From contig CAYYYI010000003.1 in the NCBI GenBank assembly GCA_964475735.1, positions 10,923 through 54,098 of the forward strand: a DNA stretch of 43,176 nt, written 5' to 3'. Positions 10,433 to 16,306 of the stretch are shown piece after piece (within the stretch, counting starts at the first letter, position 1; every line of letters starts with the position of its first letter). Position numbers and translations under genes: made by a program. The DNA comes from an uncultured Anaerolineaceae bacterium (GTDB taxonomy: Bacteria > Chloroflexota > Dehalococcoidia > Tepidiformales > Tepidiformaceae). The notes below the pieces were generated by a model. It saw only the letters and a program-made list of their open reading frames with translations, searched no databases and was not told where the DNA came from.

Positions 10433-11764
10433 ATGAGAACCCTGGCGCTTTCGATGGTGCGCGTAGCCGTCGCGGGTCTCGCGCTGCGCCGTTCGGGTGG
10501 CGACCATTCGGGCGCCAGGATCGCCGAAAGCCAGGTACCGCGGGCGCTGCGCTCCTTTTGGGCCGATGGGTTCTTCGCGGCAGGCCAGGACGCTTTCATC
10601 CTCGCGTACCTGCCGCTGCTCGTGACGGCGCTCGGGGGCGGGCCGTTCGAAGTGGGGCTGCTCTCGGCCAGCACAAGCCTCGGGGCGCTGCTGGCGCTCT
10701 ACCCGGGAGCCATCATCTCGCGACGGGCGCGCAGCCGCCGGTGGGTGGTGGTGTTCTACGCCGGCATCCTGGGGAGGCTGGCGCTGCTTGCAGCGGCATT
10801 TGCAGTGGCCGCCTTCGATGGCAACAGCGCGCTCTACGCCGTCATCGGGCTCTTCACTCTCCGCGCGTTCCTGGGCAACTTCACGCTACCGGCCTGGACG
10901 GCGTTGGCCGCGGACGTAATCCCGGAGCACTTCCGGTCGCGCTATTTCGCCTCGCGCAACTTCGCCATGAGCATCGCCACGATGACCATCACGCCGCTTG
11001 GGGGGCTTCTGCTCGACTACATGGGCTTCCCCGGCGGTTATGTGGCGGCCCTCTGCGTTTCCTTCGCGCTCGGGATGATGGCGACGCTCGCCTACGCGCG
11101 CATCCCGGAACCGGAAAAACTGGCGGAGGCAGAGACGCGCCCCCGGATTGGGCCGACGGCCACGATGCGGAATGGCGCGTTCCGGCGCTTCGTTTCAGCC
11201 ACCTTTGCCCTCCACTTCGCGACGATGATCGCGGGGCCCTTCTTCACTGTTCACCTGAAGAACAACCTCGGCGCCACCAACTTCGAGGTGGGGTGGCTCA
11301 CGACTGTCTCGCCGTTGGCGGGGCTCCTGGCCCTGCTGGTTGGGGGCGAGCTGCAGCACAGCCGCGGCGCGCTCTGGATGACCAGGCTCTCGCTTCTCGT
11401 CCTCCCCACCCTTCCTCTCATGTGGGCCTTCATCGATGCGCCCTGGATGGTGCTGGCGCCGAACATAGTGGGAGGATTCATCTGGGCCGCCTTCAACCTG
11501 GCCAACTTCCAACTGCTGCTCGAAGTGACGCCTGAGGAACACCGCGAGGAGTACGTGGCGGTCTTCCACATGACCGTGTTCGCGGCCCTGTTCGTGGCGC
11601 CGTTCCTGGGGAGCGCCATCGTAGACACGTGGGGTTACCGGACGGCCTTCGCGGTCTCGGGACTGGGAAGGCTTGTCTCGACGGCGCTGTTCTTCTTCAC
11701 AGTCCGGCCCGCTGGCAGGGAGGGCGCGAGCCGCGAGCGGGCAGAGGAGGCGCTCGCTTCTTAG
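10433..11764 (+). CDS. MFS transporter
   Basis: The 443-aa protein has about 12 predicted hydrophobic helices and a central basic loop. A GGAG lies 6 nt upstream of the ATG. The exact start is uncertain. Confidence 0.82.
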   Translation: MRTLALSMVRVAVAGLALRRSGGDHSGARIAESQVPRALRSFWADGFFAAGQDAFILAYLPLLVTALGGGPFEVGLLSASTSLGALLALYPGAIISRRARSRRWVVVFYAGILGRLALLAAAFAVAAFDGNSALYAVIGLFTLRAFLGNFTLPAWTALAADVIPEHFRSRYFASRNFAMSIATMTITPLGGLLLDYMGFPGGYVAALCVSFALGMMATLAYARIPEPEKLAEAETRPRIGPTATMRNGAFRRFVSATFALHFATMIAGPFFTVHLKNNLGATNFEVGWLTTVSPLAGLLALLVGGELQHSRGALWMTRLSLLVLPTLPLMWAFIDAPWMVLAPNIVGGFIWAAFNLANFQLLLEVTPEEHREEYVAVFHMTVFAALFVAPFLGSAIVDTWGYRTAFAVSGLGRLVSTALFFFTVRPAGREGASRERAEEALAS

Positions 11765-12243
11765 GTGGCTACCTCTGACTCCGCGCGAAGGGCCGCGGCG
11801 CGCTGCCCACGGCCAAACTCGATGAAACGAGTAAGCGCCGCGGTCACCTCTTCGAGTTCGTCATCGCTCATGCCGCCGAGGAGCTCCCGGCCGAACTCTG
11901 CAGCCTCAGAAAGGCTTGTCTCGACCGCCTGGCGGCCGCGCTCCTCAAGCCAGATGCGGATTCCGCGACGGTCGTGCGGGGCGACCTCGCGACGAATGAA
12001 CCCACCGCGTTCAAGACGCTCGAGAAGCGCCGAGACCGATGGGCGCGTGACGAGCAGGCGGTCGGCGAGCTCGGCGTTGCTGAGGCCACCCTCCTCGGCC
12101 AGGAAGACAAGCAGCCGGAGTTGTGTGACCGTCAGCCCTTCCCGGTCCCAGATGCTGAGACGCACGGGGTCCAGCAGGCCGCTGGCCAGGAAGATGGAAC
12201 GGATGGCGGCTTCGAGGGCCGGTCGGGTGCGGTCGTTATCCAT
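11761..12243 (-). CDS. MarR family transcriptional regulator
   Basis: It has a winged-HTH (LTVTQLRLLVFLAEEGGLSNAELADRLLVTRPSVSALLERLERGGFIRREVAPHDRRGIRIWLEERG). I placed the start at ATG 12243 (MDNDRT). The track's TTG at 12294 adds an implausible 17-aa extension. Confidence 0.9.
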   Translation of the reverse strand: MDNDRTRPALEAAIRSIFLASGLLDPVRLSIWDREGLTVTQLRLLVFLAEEGGLSNAELADRLLVTRPSVSALLERLERGGFIRREVAPHDRRGIRIWLEERGRQAVETSLSEAAEFGRELLGGMSDDELEEVTAALTRFIEFGRGQRAAALRAESEVAT

Positions 12244-12249
12244 AAGCCA

Positions 12250-12255
12250 ATTATA
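12250..12255 (-). promoter_or_regulatory. Candidate -10 hexamer (TATAAT) placed 6 nt upstream of the marR ATG (leaderless-type geometry)
   Basis: The minus strand reads TATAAT-tggctt-ATG in the only AT-rich patch of this intergenic region. No Shine-Dalgarno sequence is present. Confidence 0.35.
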
Positions 12256-12585
12256 AGTCCTCAACCGGGAGATAAAGAAATCCCCACTTGTCAAACTTCT
12301 TCTGCCACCAACGGAATAGGCATGAGGAGGCCTGACAAGCGCGAGGAGCGGCGAATGCCTGGCGCCCTGGCGGGAAACCTCGAAATGGTGAGCAGTCGCG
12401 AGCGCGCGAAGGCTGGCGGCGTCCTGGTGGCAACGTTCTGGATTAGGGGGCGCACAGGGCCCCCATTAGGGAACAGCCCGTAGGTGCATAGGGAAGTCGC
12501 CGCCCTGCACGGAAGCCGCAACCCGCCGATGATCAGATTGCAGGGGAAAGGGCCGGCGAGGTAGCCGCCCGGGAGGACCAGCACG

Positions 12586-12780
12586 ATGGAAACGCCGCAC
12601 ATCAGGATCTGTAAGCATTGCGAAGCGCCCTACGACTGGCGCCGGTCCCCCAGCTCAAGCCTGAAGATGACTTACTGCGGCTCGCTTTGCGAGCGCGCCG
12701 ACCTCGGTTTCACGATCGAGGCGCTGCTGGCCGACGCCCAGGTTGTGCGGTCGGCCTGGCGCGAGCTGCTGGCCGCCTGA
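12586..12780 (+). CDS. Small Cys4 zinc-ribbon protein (YacG / DUF2256-like pattern), copy 1
   Basis: The 64-aa product has C-x2-C-x18-C-x3-C (ICKHCEAPYDWRRSPSSSLKMTYCGSLCERADLGF). A GGGAGGA SD lies 9-11 nt upstream of the ATG. Its conservation with the downstream paralog at protein level argues that it is truly coding. Confidence 0.65.
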   Translation: METPHIRICKHCEAPYDWRRSPSSSLKMTYCGSLCERADLGFTIEALLADAQVVRSAWRELLAA

Positions 12781-13019
12781 CGGCCGGGCGCACGCTGCGG
12801 TGCCTCCACTACAGGTGTGTTCCGCACGCAATGTAGGCTGCATGCGTTGCGCAGCCGGTGAGCTCGATGCCACGGCAATGCCCTTTACCAAACCGCGCTG
12901 GCGCTTCAGCGGGGGAACAACCTACGCTAGATCTGCGTAGTAATGGATGAGGGCCTTATCAAACCGGCCCTCGATTGGAGAAACGCGTGGTAACGCTCAT
13001 CGGCCCCGGCGGCGCCGGG

Positions 13020-13217
13020 ATGAACCCGGACAATATCAAGATTTGCGCCCGCTGCGGGCTGCGCTATGACTGGCGCAAGTCGGCCAGCTCTGCCCTCAAG
13101 ATGACTTACTGCAGCTCCCTCTGCGAGCGTGCAGACCTTGGGTTCACCCTTGAGGCCCTGCTGAGGGTCGAGCGCGTGCAGCGTGAAACGCCCGAACCGG
13201 CCACCCCGGCTGTCTAG
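13020..13217 (+). CDS. Small Cys4 zinc-ribbon protein (YacG / DUF2256-like pattern), copy 2
   Basis: The 65-aa product has ICARCGLRYDWRKSASSALKMTYCSSLCERADLGF. I set the start at ATG 13020 by alignment with copy 1 (MNPDNIKIC versus METPHIRIC). The track's TTG at 12975 is an alternative start. Confidence 0.62.
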   Translation: MNPDNIKICARCGLRYDWRKSASSALKMTYCSSLCERADLGFTLEALLRVERVQRETPEPATPAV

Positions 13218-13239
13218 CCACAAACCCTGACCAGTAGTT

Positions 13240-13263
13240 GAGGGGCTCCTTGCGGAGCCCCTC
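13240..13263 (+). terminator. Intrinsic terminator hairpin (possibly bidirectional) between zinc-ribbon gene 2 and the convergent rhodanese gene
   Basis: GAGGGGCTCC-ttgc-GGAGCCCCTC forms a perfect 10-bp stem and is followed by TTTCGTT. Confidence 0.65.
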
Positions 13264-13283
13264 TTTCGTTCCGGCGCTCATGC

Positions 13284-14120
13284 TCATTCGATGGTGAGCG
13301 GCGTGTCGTCGCGGTTGGCCCACTCCTTCATCGAGCCGTCGTAGACGCGCACGTTGTCGTAGCCCAGCAGGGCCAGCGCAAAGGCGGCGTGAGCAGCGCG
13401 AATGCCCCCCTGGCAGTAGGTGACCGTCTCCTTGCCACGGACGATGCCTGCCTCGTCCAGGAGCGACTGCAACGCCCCGGCAGGGAGGAACCGGCGGAAG
13501 CTATCGCTGGCCACGAAGCGCACCCATTCCAGGTGTTTCGCCCCGGGCACGTGGCCCACGCGACGGTTGCCGCGGTCCTCGCGGCCAAGCCACTCCCCGT
13601 CGCTGCGGGCATCGAGCACCTGGCACGTGGGGTTCGAAAGGCGCCCCAGCAGGTACTCGCACGAGGCGTGGATTTCAGGGACGGTCCGTGCGCGGAACGT
13701 GGCCGGGGGCGGAGCGCTGGCCTCGAAGGTCACCGGGCGCCCCTCGCTGAGCCAGCTGTGCCAGCCGCCGTTGAGCACCTTCACATTGCTGTGGCCGTAG
13801 TAGTTCAGCACCCACCACAGGCGGGTAGCCACCCTTGCATTGTCGTCGTCATAGGCGACGACGGCGGTGTCATTGCCGATCCCAAGACCGCCCATGAGCG
13901 CTTCGAAGTCCGGCGGGGACATGACAAGAACGCCGAACTCCCCGCCAGCGGGGTCCGCCTCCTTGATGTAGTGATGCACTGGCAACCCCACCGCCCCGGA
14001 GATGTGGGCCCGCTTGAAGGCGTCGGGGAAGCCGCAATCCACGACCCTGACCGAGGGGTCGTCAAGCCGCTCAGCGAGCCAGCCGGTTTCGGCCAGCAGT
14101 TCGGGGCGGGAGTAGTCCAT
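13284..14120 (-). CDS. Tandem-rhodanese sulfurtransferase (thiosulfate/3-mercaptopyruvate sulfurtransferase family)
   Basis: It has two rhodanese domains and the active-site loop YCQGGIRAAH. I placed the start at ATG 14120 (MDYSRPELL), which is preceded by AAGGAG 8 nt upstream. Confidence 0.88.
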   Translation of the reverse strand: MDYSRPELLAETGWLAERLDDPSVRVVDCGFPDAFKRAHISGAVGLPVHHYIKEADPAGGEFGVLVMSPPDFEALMGGLGIGNDTAVVAYDDDNARVATRLWWVLNYYGHSNVKVLNGGWHSWLSEGRPVTFEASAPPPATFRARTVPEIHASCEYLLGRLSNPTCQVLDARSDGEWLGREDRGNRRVGHVPGAKHLEWVRFVASDSFRRFLPAGALQSLLDEAGIVRGKETVTYCQGGIRAAHAAFALALLGYDNVRVYDGSMKEWANRDDTPLTIE

Positions 14121-14164
14121 GGCGAGTGCTCCTTCGTTTCGCGGGGCGCCCTTCGAAACCAGCC

Positions 14165-16306
14165 TCACAGGTGTGCGCGGAAGTACTCGATGAGTCGCCG
14201 CTCCTGGTATTCGAGCCCTTTGGCGTCGCGCGGCATGTGGCGTTCCTCGGGGAACACGAGCAGGTCATATTCCTTCTGCGCCGCCGAAAGCGCCACGATC
14301 AGGCGCGCCGTGTGCCGGAAGTGGACGTTCTCGTCGATCATGCCGTGGATGAGCAGCAGCTTCCCATTGAGGCGGGAGACGTGGGCCATGACCGAGCTCT
14401 CATCATAGCCGCCGGGATTTAGTTCGGGAGTGCTCATGTACCTCTCGGTGTAGGCGGTGTCGTAGCCGTCCCAGTGCGTCACCGGCGCGCCGGCCACGCC
14501 AACGCGAAAGATGCCGGGCTCCCTCGCCATTGCCATCAGCGTCATGTAGCCGCCATAGCTCCAGCCATAGATGCCCACCCGCGACGGCTCAGCCACTCCA
14601 AGGGCGGCGAGGTGGCGCACCCCCGCCGCCTGGTCTTCGACCTCAACCCGCCCTGTGCAGAGGTGGATGGGCGCTTCGAAAGCCAGCCCGCGATTGGCGC
14701 TCCCCCGGTTGTCGAGCTTGAAGACGGCGTAGCCCTCGCGGGCAAGGTACTGCGCGCGCAGGTCCACGGTCAGCGACCACTCGTTCGCCACGCGCTGGAC
14801 GTGCGGCCCCCCGTACACAGAGACGATCAGCGGGAACGGGCCGTCGCCCCGCGAACCAGGCGGCCGGTAGAGCGCGCCGTGGAGGGGGGTGCTGCCATCG
14901 GCGGCCGTGAGGGTCAGGATCTCCGGCTCCACGAGCCCGAGGTCAGTTGCTGTGGCGCCCTCGTTCGCGAACAGCACCGTTTCGAGCGACCCGCCGATCG
15001 AGCGCAGGGCAACCCGCGGCCCGTGGCTGAGCGAGCTCCAGGTATCCACGAAGCGGGTGTGACCGGGGTCGAGGACGGCATCGTGCCAGCCGGGCTCGCT
15101 CGTGAGCCTGCGGGCCTCTCCGCCGTCGAGCGAAACGGCGTAGAGGTGGCGTTCGAGGACCGACTCCCGGGTCGCCATGAAGTAGGCGACGCGGCGCTCT
15201 TCGTCAACCGAAACAAGCCGGGTTATCACCCATTCGCCGCCGGTGAGCTGGCGGGATTCGCGCTCGGCCGGGCTATTGAGGTAGAGATGCCGGTAGCCGG
15301 ACTTCTCACTTGTGCGGACCACCTCGCCCGAGGCGAGGAAGCGGGTGTCGTTGTCCAGGTTGATCCACGGCTCGCCTCGGCGTTCGAGCAGCAGCTCGCG
15401 CTTGCCGGTGGCGGCATCGAAGGCAAACAGCTGCAGGGAGCGCTGGTCGCGAGAAAGCAACTGGGCGGTGAGGGTGTTGCCTGGCCTCCAGCAAACGCGG
15501 GCGATATAGATGTCCCGTTCGGGGCCCAGGTCCATCCAGCGCACTTCCCCGGATGCGACGTCCACCACACCGAGGTCAACGTATGCGTTGGCCTCGCCCG
15601 CGAAGGGGTAGCGGTGCTCTTCGACGTCCACATCGTCTCGGCCCTGGTGGACTATGGGGTACTTGGGAATGTGCCTGCTGCCGGACCGGATGAAGGCGAT
15701 CCGGGCGCCATCGGGGCTCCACCAGAAGCCCTCGTCGCGGTCGAGCTCCTCCTGGGCGATGAACTCGGCCAGCCCGTTGGTGACGCCATCCTCCGCGCCG
15801 CTGGTGAGCTGGCGAGGCACTCCCCCGTCAGCGGAGCTCACGTGTAGCTCGCCGTCGCGCACGAAGGCGAGCTGGCTGCCGTCGTCGCTCAGACGGGGGT
15901 CGAGTGCCCCGCCGGTCCCGGGAAGCTCGCGCAGGGCTTCTCCCCCAACGCTCACGAAGAGCGAGCCGCCGCCGGGGACGAGAAGCACGGCCGGATCGGC
16001 CTTCTTCGCGAACTGGTAGTGCGTGACACCGAGCTCGCGCAGCCGGGCGCGCTCGCGCCGGAGCTCCTCTTCGCGGGAGAGCTTGCTTTCGTCGTGCGAT
16101 GCCGCCGGTGGCCCGGCGAGAACCGTCCGCTCCCCGGTAGCGATGTCGTACCGCCAGAGGCTGCGGACGAGCGTGCCCTCTTCGCTGAACAGGTAGGTGA
16201 CGGCGGCCCCATCGGGCGTGAACCGGATGGAGGCAGGCGCAGCCATCCCCGGCCTTGGGAAGCGAGCCACCTGCTCGATGGTGATTGTTTCGAAGGGGCG
16301 CGTCAC
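14165..16306 (-). CDS. S9 family serine peptidase, dipeptidyl-peptidase IV-like (beta-propeller + alpha/beta hydrolase)
   Basis: The 713-aa protein has a long N-terminal propeller region. The catalytic triad context is GWSYGGYM (Ser), [12 protein letters not shown] (Asp) and ERHMP (His). Its GTG start overlaps the pepP stop (GTGA). Confidence 0.9.

Follow-up and report, generated by a model that had tools for sequence, protein, structure and literature searches.

YacG (PF03884, formerly DUF329), the endogenous gyrase inhibitor of Escherichia coli (PDB 1LV3 and 4TMA), is a short treble-clef finger of the FCS type, and DUF2256 (PF10013) is an uncharacterised bacterial miniprotein with a Cys4 motif. 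To our knowledge, YacG is the only member of the YacG/DUF2256 group that has a known function. Here we analyse a related pair of tandem genes, copy 1 and copy 2, in a 43,176-nt stretch of DNA (the window) from the genome of an uncultured bacterium of the Tepidiformaceae (contig CAYYYI010000003.1, positions 10,923 to 54,098). Their products are likewise short treble-clef fingers of the FCS type, and they belong to a new, lineage-defining family within a known superfamily, with an unusual genetic organisation. In the structure of the YacG-gyrase complex, YacG touches GyrB mainly through the linker of its finger and its lone helix, with Trp18 and Asp36 among the contacting residues (PMC4083091). 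The invariant Trp40 of YacG enters a hydrophobic pocket of GyrB, and the substitution W40V abolishes both binding and inhibition (PMC4083091). The Pfam TRASH clan includes DUF2256, DUF329 (YacG) and zf-FCS (PMC4047054).

The two genes and their immediate signals are as follows; first-copy and last-copy types refer to positions in the arrays described below.

12571-12577, plus strand: Shine-Dalgarno sequence GGGAGGA of copy 1, 8 nt before the ATG, with a GGAG column conserved in the leader alignment
12586-12780, plus strand: copy 1, first-copy type, ATG start, 64 amino acids ending in -WRELLAA, recognised from its open reading frame (ORF) and homologues
12977-12980, plus strand: Shine-Dalgarno sequence GGAG of copy 2, 6 nt before GTG 12987, conserved in the last-copy leader alignment
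12987-13217, plus strand: copy 2, last-copy type, 76 amino acids from the probable start GTG 12987, ending in -PAV
13020-13217, plus strand: copy 2 from the alternative start ATG 13020, 65 amino acids
13240-13270, plus strand: intrinsic terminator closing the array, GAGGGGCTCC-TTGC-GGAGCCCCTC and then TTTCGTT

A first-pass annotation, made from the sequence of the window, had reported a tandem pair of paralogues of 64-65 residues with about 65% identity. Both ORFs are present, and BLASTP finds 35 of 55 aligned residues identical (64%, E 7e-25). The Cys4 layout and identical core claimed at the time are also found in both copies, as C-x2-C-x18-C-x3-C and S-x-LKMTYC-x-SLCERADLGFT-x-EALL. The strong Shine-Dalgarno sequence before copy 1 and the clean terminator after the pair are equally in place, the latter as a GC-rich stem of 10 bp (13240-13263) with the T-rich tail TTTCGTT behind it. 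DNA identity between the copies is 0.76, 0.75 and 0.53 at codon positions one, two and three, which agrees with the earlier view that their third-position divergence reflects purifying selection. Pairwise estimates (NG86) give dN 0.28 and dS 1.24, the latter near saturation, and a dN/dS ratio (omega) of 0.23; among orthologues of the same genus the ratio falls to 0.03-0.09. On these ratios the copies are protein-coding genes under strong constraint. Both small genes are real and subject to purifying selection. Many long ORFs arise by chance in GC-rich DNA, and the copies could in principle be such ORFs or decaying pseudogenes; we consider the probability of this negligible, given an omega far below 1, a presence throughout the order, a confident fold prediction and coverage by RNA. 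The omega value and the order-wide presence refute that reading.

Searches outside the window define the family. A query with copy 1 matched 605 proteins in a collection of 5.8 billion, all of them short and 'hypothetical' where named, and originating from Tepidiformaceae, Tepidiforma or Dehalococcoidia metagenome-assembled genomes (MAGs). Rather than being limited to this genome with a dN/dS near 1, as the first-pass annotation had named for the case against a real gene pair, the copies have these 605 homologues and an omega of 0.23. A profile search of 1.84 billion cluster representatives returned only 228 at E <= 0.001, all small, and protein length across the family is 60-80 amino acids. 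With the family profile, one to six copies per genome were found in all 81 sampled genomes of the order, which belong to a single family, Tepidiformaceae, and span 26 genera; a class-level search found no copy in 115 genomes from other Dehalococcoidia families. The family is confined to Tepidiformaceae as far as sampled. Among 103 members scanned, none reaches any Pfam cut-off, and neither Pfam nor NCBIfam holds a model of the family; NCBIfam, PADLOC and PHROGs returned nothing meaningful, at best a weak match to a phage HNH model through the zinc ribbon. We found no paper on the family, and in the literature DUF2256 is named only in passing. The statement that this is not a described module therefore stands for the libraries and literature searched, and the suggested search of related genomes showed that the tandem arrangement recurs across Tepidiformaceae.

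The window comes from a MAG whose sequence occurs in sludge and bioreactor metagenomes, and which carries five paralogues, two here and three on other contigs (G000:C192:1679-1849, L003; G000:C149:205-366, L004; G000:C55:6251-6367, L005). One of these off-array paralogues adjoins genes for a Sir2-type deacetylase and a TrkA-like channel, another, with a -PLAA end, has a biotin carboxylase-like gene next to it, and one is divergent from a gene for a thioredoxin-reductase-like flavoprotein. A weakly matching paralogue, with a score like that of the one at the thioredoxin-reductase-like gene, is present in most of the family genomes searched. In a few longer members from other metagenomes, such as P0179 and P0183, the family domain is followed by another zinc ribbon (CxxC...CxxC) at the C-terminus; domain fusions among the longer members were limited to added ribbons of this sort and an amidase fragment that was probably mis-joined.

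The fold of the family places it close to YacG and DUF2256. The AlphaFold2 model of copy 1, built from a 103-sequence alignment, has a mean predicted local distance difference test score (pLDDT) of 86.4; an earlier run on a shallow alignment (pLDDT 62) was not used. In the model, a beta-hairpin (residues 6-8 and 15-17) bears the first cysteine pair, a short helix (33-40) bears the C31/C35 pair, and a long helix follows (44-63). The Cys4 zinc ribbon proposed in the first-pass annotation thus appears as a modelled treble-clef fold (pLDDT 86). In a Foldseek search of the PDB, the best match is the FCS zinc finger of L3MBTL2 (2W0T), and ranks two to five are the four YacG chains of the gyrase complex (4TMA), with 27% identity and a root-mean-square deviation of 2.3 A over 37 columns. 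YacG was absent from the results of a profile search of PDB sequences, which gave one chance match at E 1.7.

For profile comparison, a DUF2256 profile was built on seven genes recovered from Chloroflexota genomes and a YacG profile on homologues retrieved with the E. coli sequence. With hhalign, the family matches DUF2256 at 94.5% (E 8e-8; 31% identity over 35 columns) and YacG at 78% (E 2e-5), and the control comparison of YacG with DUF2256 gives 88% (E 3e-6). The family thus shows the features of the TRASH/FCS clan (CL0175), namely C-x2-C-x17-22-C-x3-C, a hairpin and helix, and profile similarity to two members. Judged by the model and these profiles, it belongs to this treble-clef clan as a Cys4 finger that presumably binds zinc. 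At the level of individual Pfam families the picture differs. The copies score 15.2 and 18.7 bits against PF10013 (cut-off 25), and 18 of the 103 members match it at E <= 0.1 (best E 7.5e-4), none passing the cut-off. Against PF03884 (cut-off 25.5), copy 1 gives no match and the score of copy 2 is 12.8 bits (E 0.1); only 7 of the 103 members match at E <= 0.1, with 0.005 the best value. The window genome has no gene for a canonical YacG or DUF2256, and its best PF03884 match is copy 2 itself, at 12.5 bits. Direct Pfam matches to zf-FCS, YHS or Arc_trans_TRASH were also absent. The likeness to YacG and DUF2256 noted earlier therefore holds for the superfamily, through hhalign and Foldseek, and fails for membership, all scores being below the Pfam cut-offs. 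We conclude that this is a third family beside DUF2256 and YacG and a member of neither.

The organisation of the genes is equally distinctive. In most of 80 loci taken from GTDB species representatives, two to four copies stand head to tail on one strand, about 130-250 nt apart. Three sequence types follow the position in the array: W-[RK]-x-L-L-A-A closes the first copies and -AA the middle ones, and last copies have an ETPIGPG extension at their start and -PAV or -PVV at their end. When array position is mapped on a maximum-likelihood tree (184 sequences), 7-11 changes per class are needed, compared with 35-54 when positions are shuffled, and none of 500 shuffles was as low. This clustering argues that the duplications predate the radiation of Tepidiformaceae. 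The array of two to four copies is thus ancestral and its positions represent old paralogue types, with the window's genus having the first and last types and no middle copy. The idea of a locally duplicated pair, special to the window genome, does not hold against an array that is ancient and family-wide.

The start of the last gene was examined by aligning the DNA upstream of it, in 11 related loci first and then in 40. In the 40 loci, the 33 nt before ATG 13020 show codon-like conservation with wobble at third positions, and encode an in-frame N-terminal extension with the consensus M-V-E-T-P-I-G-P-G-x3-G-M-N, with a GGAG-type Shine-Dalgarno sequence ahead. Because the extension is conserved at the codon level and each is preceded by such a sequence, copy 2 most likely starts at GTG 12987 and yields a product of 76 amino acids. 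The 240-nt gap between the copies given in the first-pass annotation applies if ATG 13020 is used; with GTG 12987 the spacer is 206 nt. In several genera (loci L022, L025, L031 and L088), ATC or ATA stands where other loci have the GTG, ATG or TTG that opens the extension, and no in-frame NTG lies upstream, which suggests non-canonical initiation there. Metatranscriptome contigs in X32, X35 and X37, each from a different study, begin at 12992-12995, just past GTG 12987, and three other copy-2 contigs begin at 12945-12954. The ends at 12992-12995 may mark another start of transcription or a site of processing, giving an mRNA that could encode only the 65-amino-acid form.

Each copy is preceded by its own conserved block, a putative promoter judging from its pattern across loci. 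The blocks in the window read as follows.

12491-12533, plus strand: copy-1 promoter-like block, with a GGG-N-CCC inverted repeat, CTGCAC (12505-12510), a 16-nt spacer and CGATGAT (12527-12533)
12899-12939, plus strand: copy-2 promoter-like block, with TGGCGC (12899-12904) and TACGCT (12923-12928)
12914-12939, plus strand: alternative reading of the copy-2 block as an extracytoplasmic function (ECF)-type promoter, GGAAC (12914-12918), N17, CGTA (12936-12939)

Across 52 aligned copy-1 leaders, only the last ~110 nt are conserved, with the GGG-N-CCC inverted repeat, an (A)GTGAAC box in most genera (CTGCAC in the window's genus) and then CGA-W-GAT. The two boxes stand 16-17 nt apart, and the DNA between them has no fixed sequence but almost no insertions or deletions; a spacer that is variable yet fixed in length points to a promoter pattern and not to an RNA helix. 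In last-copy leaders, TCTACGCTGGA is nearly invariant in 40, with a T-x-x-CGC box 17-18 nt upstream. The ECF-type pattern GGAAC-N17-CGTT occurs in 24 of 66 last-copy leaders, and the window's clade reads GGAAC-N17-CGT(A/T); a sigma-A-like reading, TTgCGC-N17-TACGCT, suits more last-copy loci. Genome scans gave 210 matches to GGAAC-N16-18-CGT and 82 to GAAC-N16-17-CGAWGAT, so that neither pattern is specific, and no link to a sigma-factor gene emerged. The 9-mer CCGATGATC was rejected as a signal, being too frequent alone with 77 sites in the genome.

We also considered a riboswitch or structured RNA in the copy-1 leader. The 297-nt leader folds no better than shuffled sequences (minimum free energy (MFE) z-score -0.46), RNAalifold found no consensus structure in the 52 genera-spanning leaders, and an Rfam scan of 11500-14000 at E <= 1 returned only the terminator, matched to BjrC68 at 18 bits against a gathering threshold of 39. 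The two leaders of the window have no common repeats. On these grounds the structured leader was discarded, and with it the earlier reading of the long leader as a regulatory RNA, since conservation is limited to the promoter-like ~110 nt with its fixed spacing. As an observation apart, three-copy genera (L024, L027-L029, L034-L046 and others) carry a long hairpin in the last-copy leader, about 60-100 nt before the start (GGC-ACCCG-A-CCCUUC-loop-GAAGGG-CGGGG-AA-GCC), whose inner stem shows compensatory changes (CCCUUC/GAAGGG, CCCUCC/GGAGGG, CCCCC/GGGGG, CCUCG/CGAGG). Their last-copy leaders have a mean MFE z-score of only -1.1, and the window has a different 7-bp hairpin at the same place, GAGGGCC/GGCCCUC (12950-12973).

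Public metatranscriptome assemblies, which consist of unstranded contigs, cover the two copies separately. Copy-2 contigs from six runs of different studies extend from 12945-12995 to 13199-13234. Several assemblies have copy 2 as the piece with the best coverage, or as the sole piece, of the 2-kb stretch examined: in run X32 it reaches 17.7x against 2x for the downstream rhodanese gene, and in three runs nothing else of that stretch is present. Copy-1 contigs span 12292-12777, 12615-12781 and 12233-12643. The only 'transcriptomic' run with full coverage, X11, is a flat 4.4-kb contig. These data support a separate, abundant copy-2 RNA that ends at the terminator and starts just downstream of the conserved block. 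Together with the individual promoter-like blocks, they make the separate regulation of the copies suggested earlier plausible.

The C-termini add a further layer. An Ala-Ala end is encoded in 63 of 66 first copies and 36 of 38 middle copies, typically as -LLAA, and last copies end in -AV, -VV or -AI. The transfer-messenger RNA (tmRNA) tag of two genomes of the same genus is GNRQLALAA. This gene-encoded ending resembles the tag by which the cell itself marks proteins for degradation, which suggests constitutive instability of first and middle copies, as substrates of a ClpXP-type protease. In the window genome, the tmRNA gene (G000:C151:1-314) is cut by a contig end, and ARAGORN finds none in the MAG.

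The two ORFs, on the plus strand, lie between a divergent and a convergent gene.

11761-12243, minus strand: MarR-family regulator gene, divergent (Pfam MarR_2, 2e-17)
13284-14168, minus strand: tandem-rhodanese sulfurtransferase gene, convergent (Pfam Rhodanese, 7.6e-35)

The divergent marR gene singled out in the first-pass annotation is indeed upstream, but a link to the pair does not follow, since only 6 of about 80 loci have marR directly next to the array, and elsewhere it is 1.2-3.8 kb away or absent. MarR is a neighbour in the window's genus only and is incidental. The one stable neighbour is the rhodanese gene, which lies convergently on the opposite strand within 600 nt downstream of the array in 46 loci. 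In many genera, a gene for a luciferase-like (LLM-class) flavin oxidoreductase stands between marR and the array, on the strand of the array, and ends 150-250 nt before the first copy (for example L055:2393-3847). In run X28, the contig covering marR (12081-12265) extends 22 nt beyond its ATG at 12243 and a 26-nt gap (12266-12291) lies between it and the contig of copy 1; the marR transcript may thus have a leader, or the start codon may be the upstream TTG 12294.

Taken together, we propose that the family comprises small protein-binding regulators, controlled by transcription and proteolysis and encoded as an ancestral array of TRASH/FCS fingers, a proposal that we hold to be about evenly balanced between right and wrong. 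The linker of the finger, YDWRRSPSSSLKMTY, and its helix, CxSLCERADLGF, would dock on a conserved cellular partner; these surfaces, the best conserved of the family, correspond to those by which YacG contacts GyrB. Dosage would be set at two levels, by a promoter for each copy and by the -LLAA/-AA ends that probably make first and middle copies short-lived ClpXP-type substrates unless protected, with the last copy, copy 2 here and ending in -PAV, presumably being the abundantly transcribed one. By count from the sequences, the finger proteins are near neutral in charge, about 0 for copy 1 and +2 for copy 2, which favours protein binding over DNA binding. GyrB would be the leading single candidate partner, although a doubtful one.

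Several points weigh against this proposal. The hhalign values are single comparisons and are helped by the cysteine pattern. The RNA contigs are unstranded and of low depth, and may include DNA. Two of the copy-1 contigs, 12292-12777 and 12233-12643, also cover DNA upstream of the proposed copy-1 promoter, and the true start may therefore lie elsewhere. Neither domain fusions of note nor operon partners were found that would point to a partner, and we infer zinc binding, proteolysis and promoter use alike.

How far the parallel with YacG extends is the central question. The copies might be functional YacG equivalents that bind the TOPRIM domain of GyrB and block DNA binding by gyrase, the paralogues providing differently timed inhibition. 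Superfamily homology together with the YacG-specific C-x3-C-x3-DLG motif, the rank of YacG among the top fold matches and a genome without canonical YacG or DUF2256 all speak for this. So does the correspondence of W18 and D39 of the family to the contact residues Trp18 and Asp36 of YacG, and the GyrB of the window genome keeps every pocket residue (M461, H505, L509, F513, R516, F777 and L780). Since this pocket is conserved in most bacteria, however, the check is only permissive. The essential Trp40 (PMC4083091) falls on Thr43, which is Thr or Ser in the family, with an invariant Phe42 one position earlier, in an hhalign register extended by eye beyond the last aligned column (DLG). An amphipathic helix takes the place of the tail bearing Ile47 and Trp59, the PF03884 score is 12.8 bits against 25.5, and the profile is closer to DUF2256 than to YacG. 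On balance we regard YacG equivalence as unlikely. Bolder still, the copies could be graded YacG-like inhibitors of gyrase or another TOPRIM enzyme, using the same docking surface under different promoters, with an ssrA-like degron on all but one; this would be a quite improbable outcome. If true, inhibition would be switched on quickly and erased by ClpXP, a proteolysis-timed control of topoisomerase without a described counterpart.

Other roles for the fingers draw on different features. Metal or sulfur handling in the original TRASH sense, as a zinc or copper buffer or as a persulfide relay with the neighbouring rhodanese, would accord with the TRASH-clan Cys4 motif and with the convergent rhodanese gene in 46 loci of many genera, and multiple copies with high transcript levels would suit a buffer. 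Yet the most conserved feature is a long surface stretch (YDWRRSPSSSLKMTY, ERADLGFTIE), not the cysteines, and a simple buffer needs none; moreover, the rhodanese gene lies on the other strand in a peptidase operon, and the off-array paralogues have no rhodanese beside them. We give this role a small chance. A role as nucleic-acid-binding zinc fingers, acting as small regulators of transcription or RNA, seems to us a comparably poor prospect: treble-clef/FCS fingers can bind nucleic acids (PMC4083091) and the loop between the cysteine pairs is basic (WRRS...LK), but the net charge is about 0 for copy 1 and +2 for copy 2, Pfam scans found no helix-turn-helix or second DNA-binding element, and the closest characterised relative binds protein. 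Between these possibilities, small protein-binding regulators remain our preferred reading.

With this family, the bacterial zinc-finger miniproteins grouped around YacG and DUF2256 gain a third branch. The family is highly conserved, communities of activated sludge and bioreactors transcribe it, and it is nameless in the libraries searched. It also serves as a lineage marker: all Tepidiformaceae genomes sampled have it, and none of the 115 genomes of other Dehalococcoidia families does. Three traits are unusual for such miniproteins: ancient tandem paralogues, separate promoter-like blocks and a gene-encoded ssrA-like end. If the partner is gyrase or another core enzyme, the array would be a compact case of small proteins tuning essential machines. 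Tepidiforma flava is in culture, and the question of the partner is therefore directly testable.

Compared with the described systems, the family combines shared and distinct features. With YacG it shares C-x5-W, [FY]-C and C-x3-C-x3-D-L-G. However, YacG is a single gene, whereas the family has one to six copies per genome in tandem arrays, with a loop three residues longer and an amphipathic helix in place of the acidic YacG tail with Ile47 and Trp59. DUF2256 is similar in size and shares C-x2-C-x2-P-[FY]-x-W-R-[RK] and [Y]-C-[SG]-x2-C, with a spacing of x19 instead of x18. Of its signature, C-x2-C-G-R-P-F-x-W-R-K-K-W...Y-C-S-x2-C-R, the first half fits the family (C-x2-C-x2-P-Y-D-W-R-R) and the second differs: a basic tail (CRRAARR) follows the fourth cysteine directly in DUF2256, while the family continues with E-x-A-D-L-G-F and a 20-residue helix. 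DUF2256 was found as a single-copy gene in 8 of 151 Chloroflexota genomes, none of them in Tepidiformaceae. The zf-FCS/TRASH domains resemble it in C-x2-C-x17-22-C-x3-C and in an aromatic residue before the third cysteine, but are usually parts of larger proteins. Finally, the -LLAA and -AA ends of first and middle copies resemble ssrA-type degrons, such as the tmRNA tag (...ALAA) and the RseA fragment (-VAA), with the difference that the ssrA tag is added by tmRNA, whereas the ending of the family is encoded in the gene.

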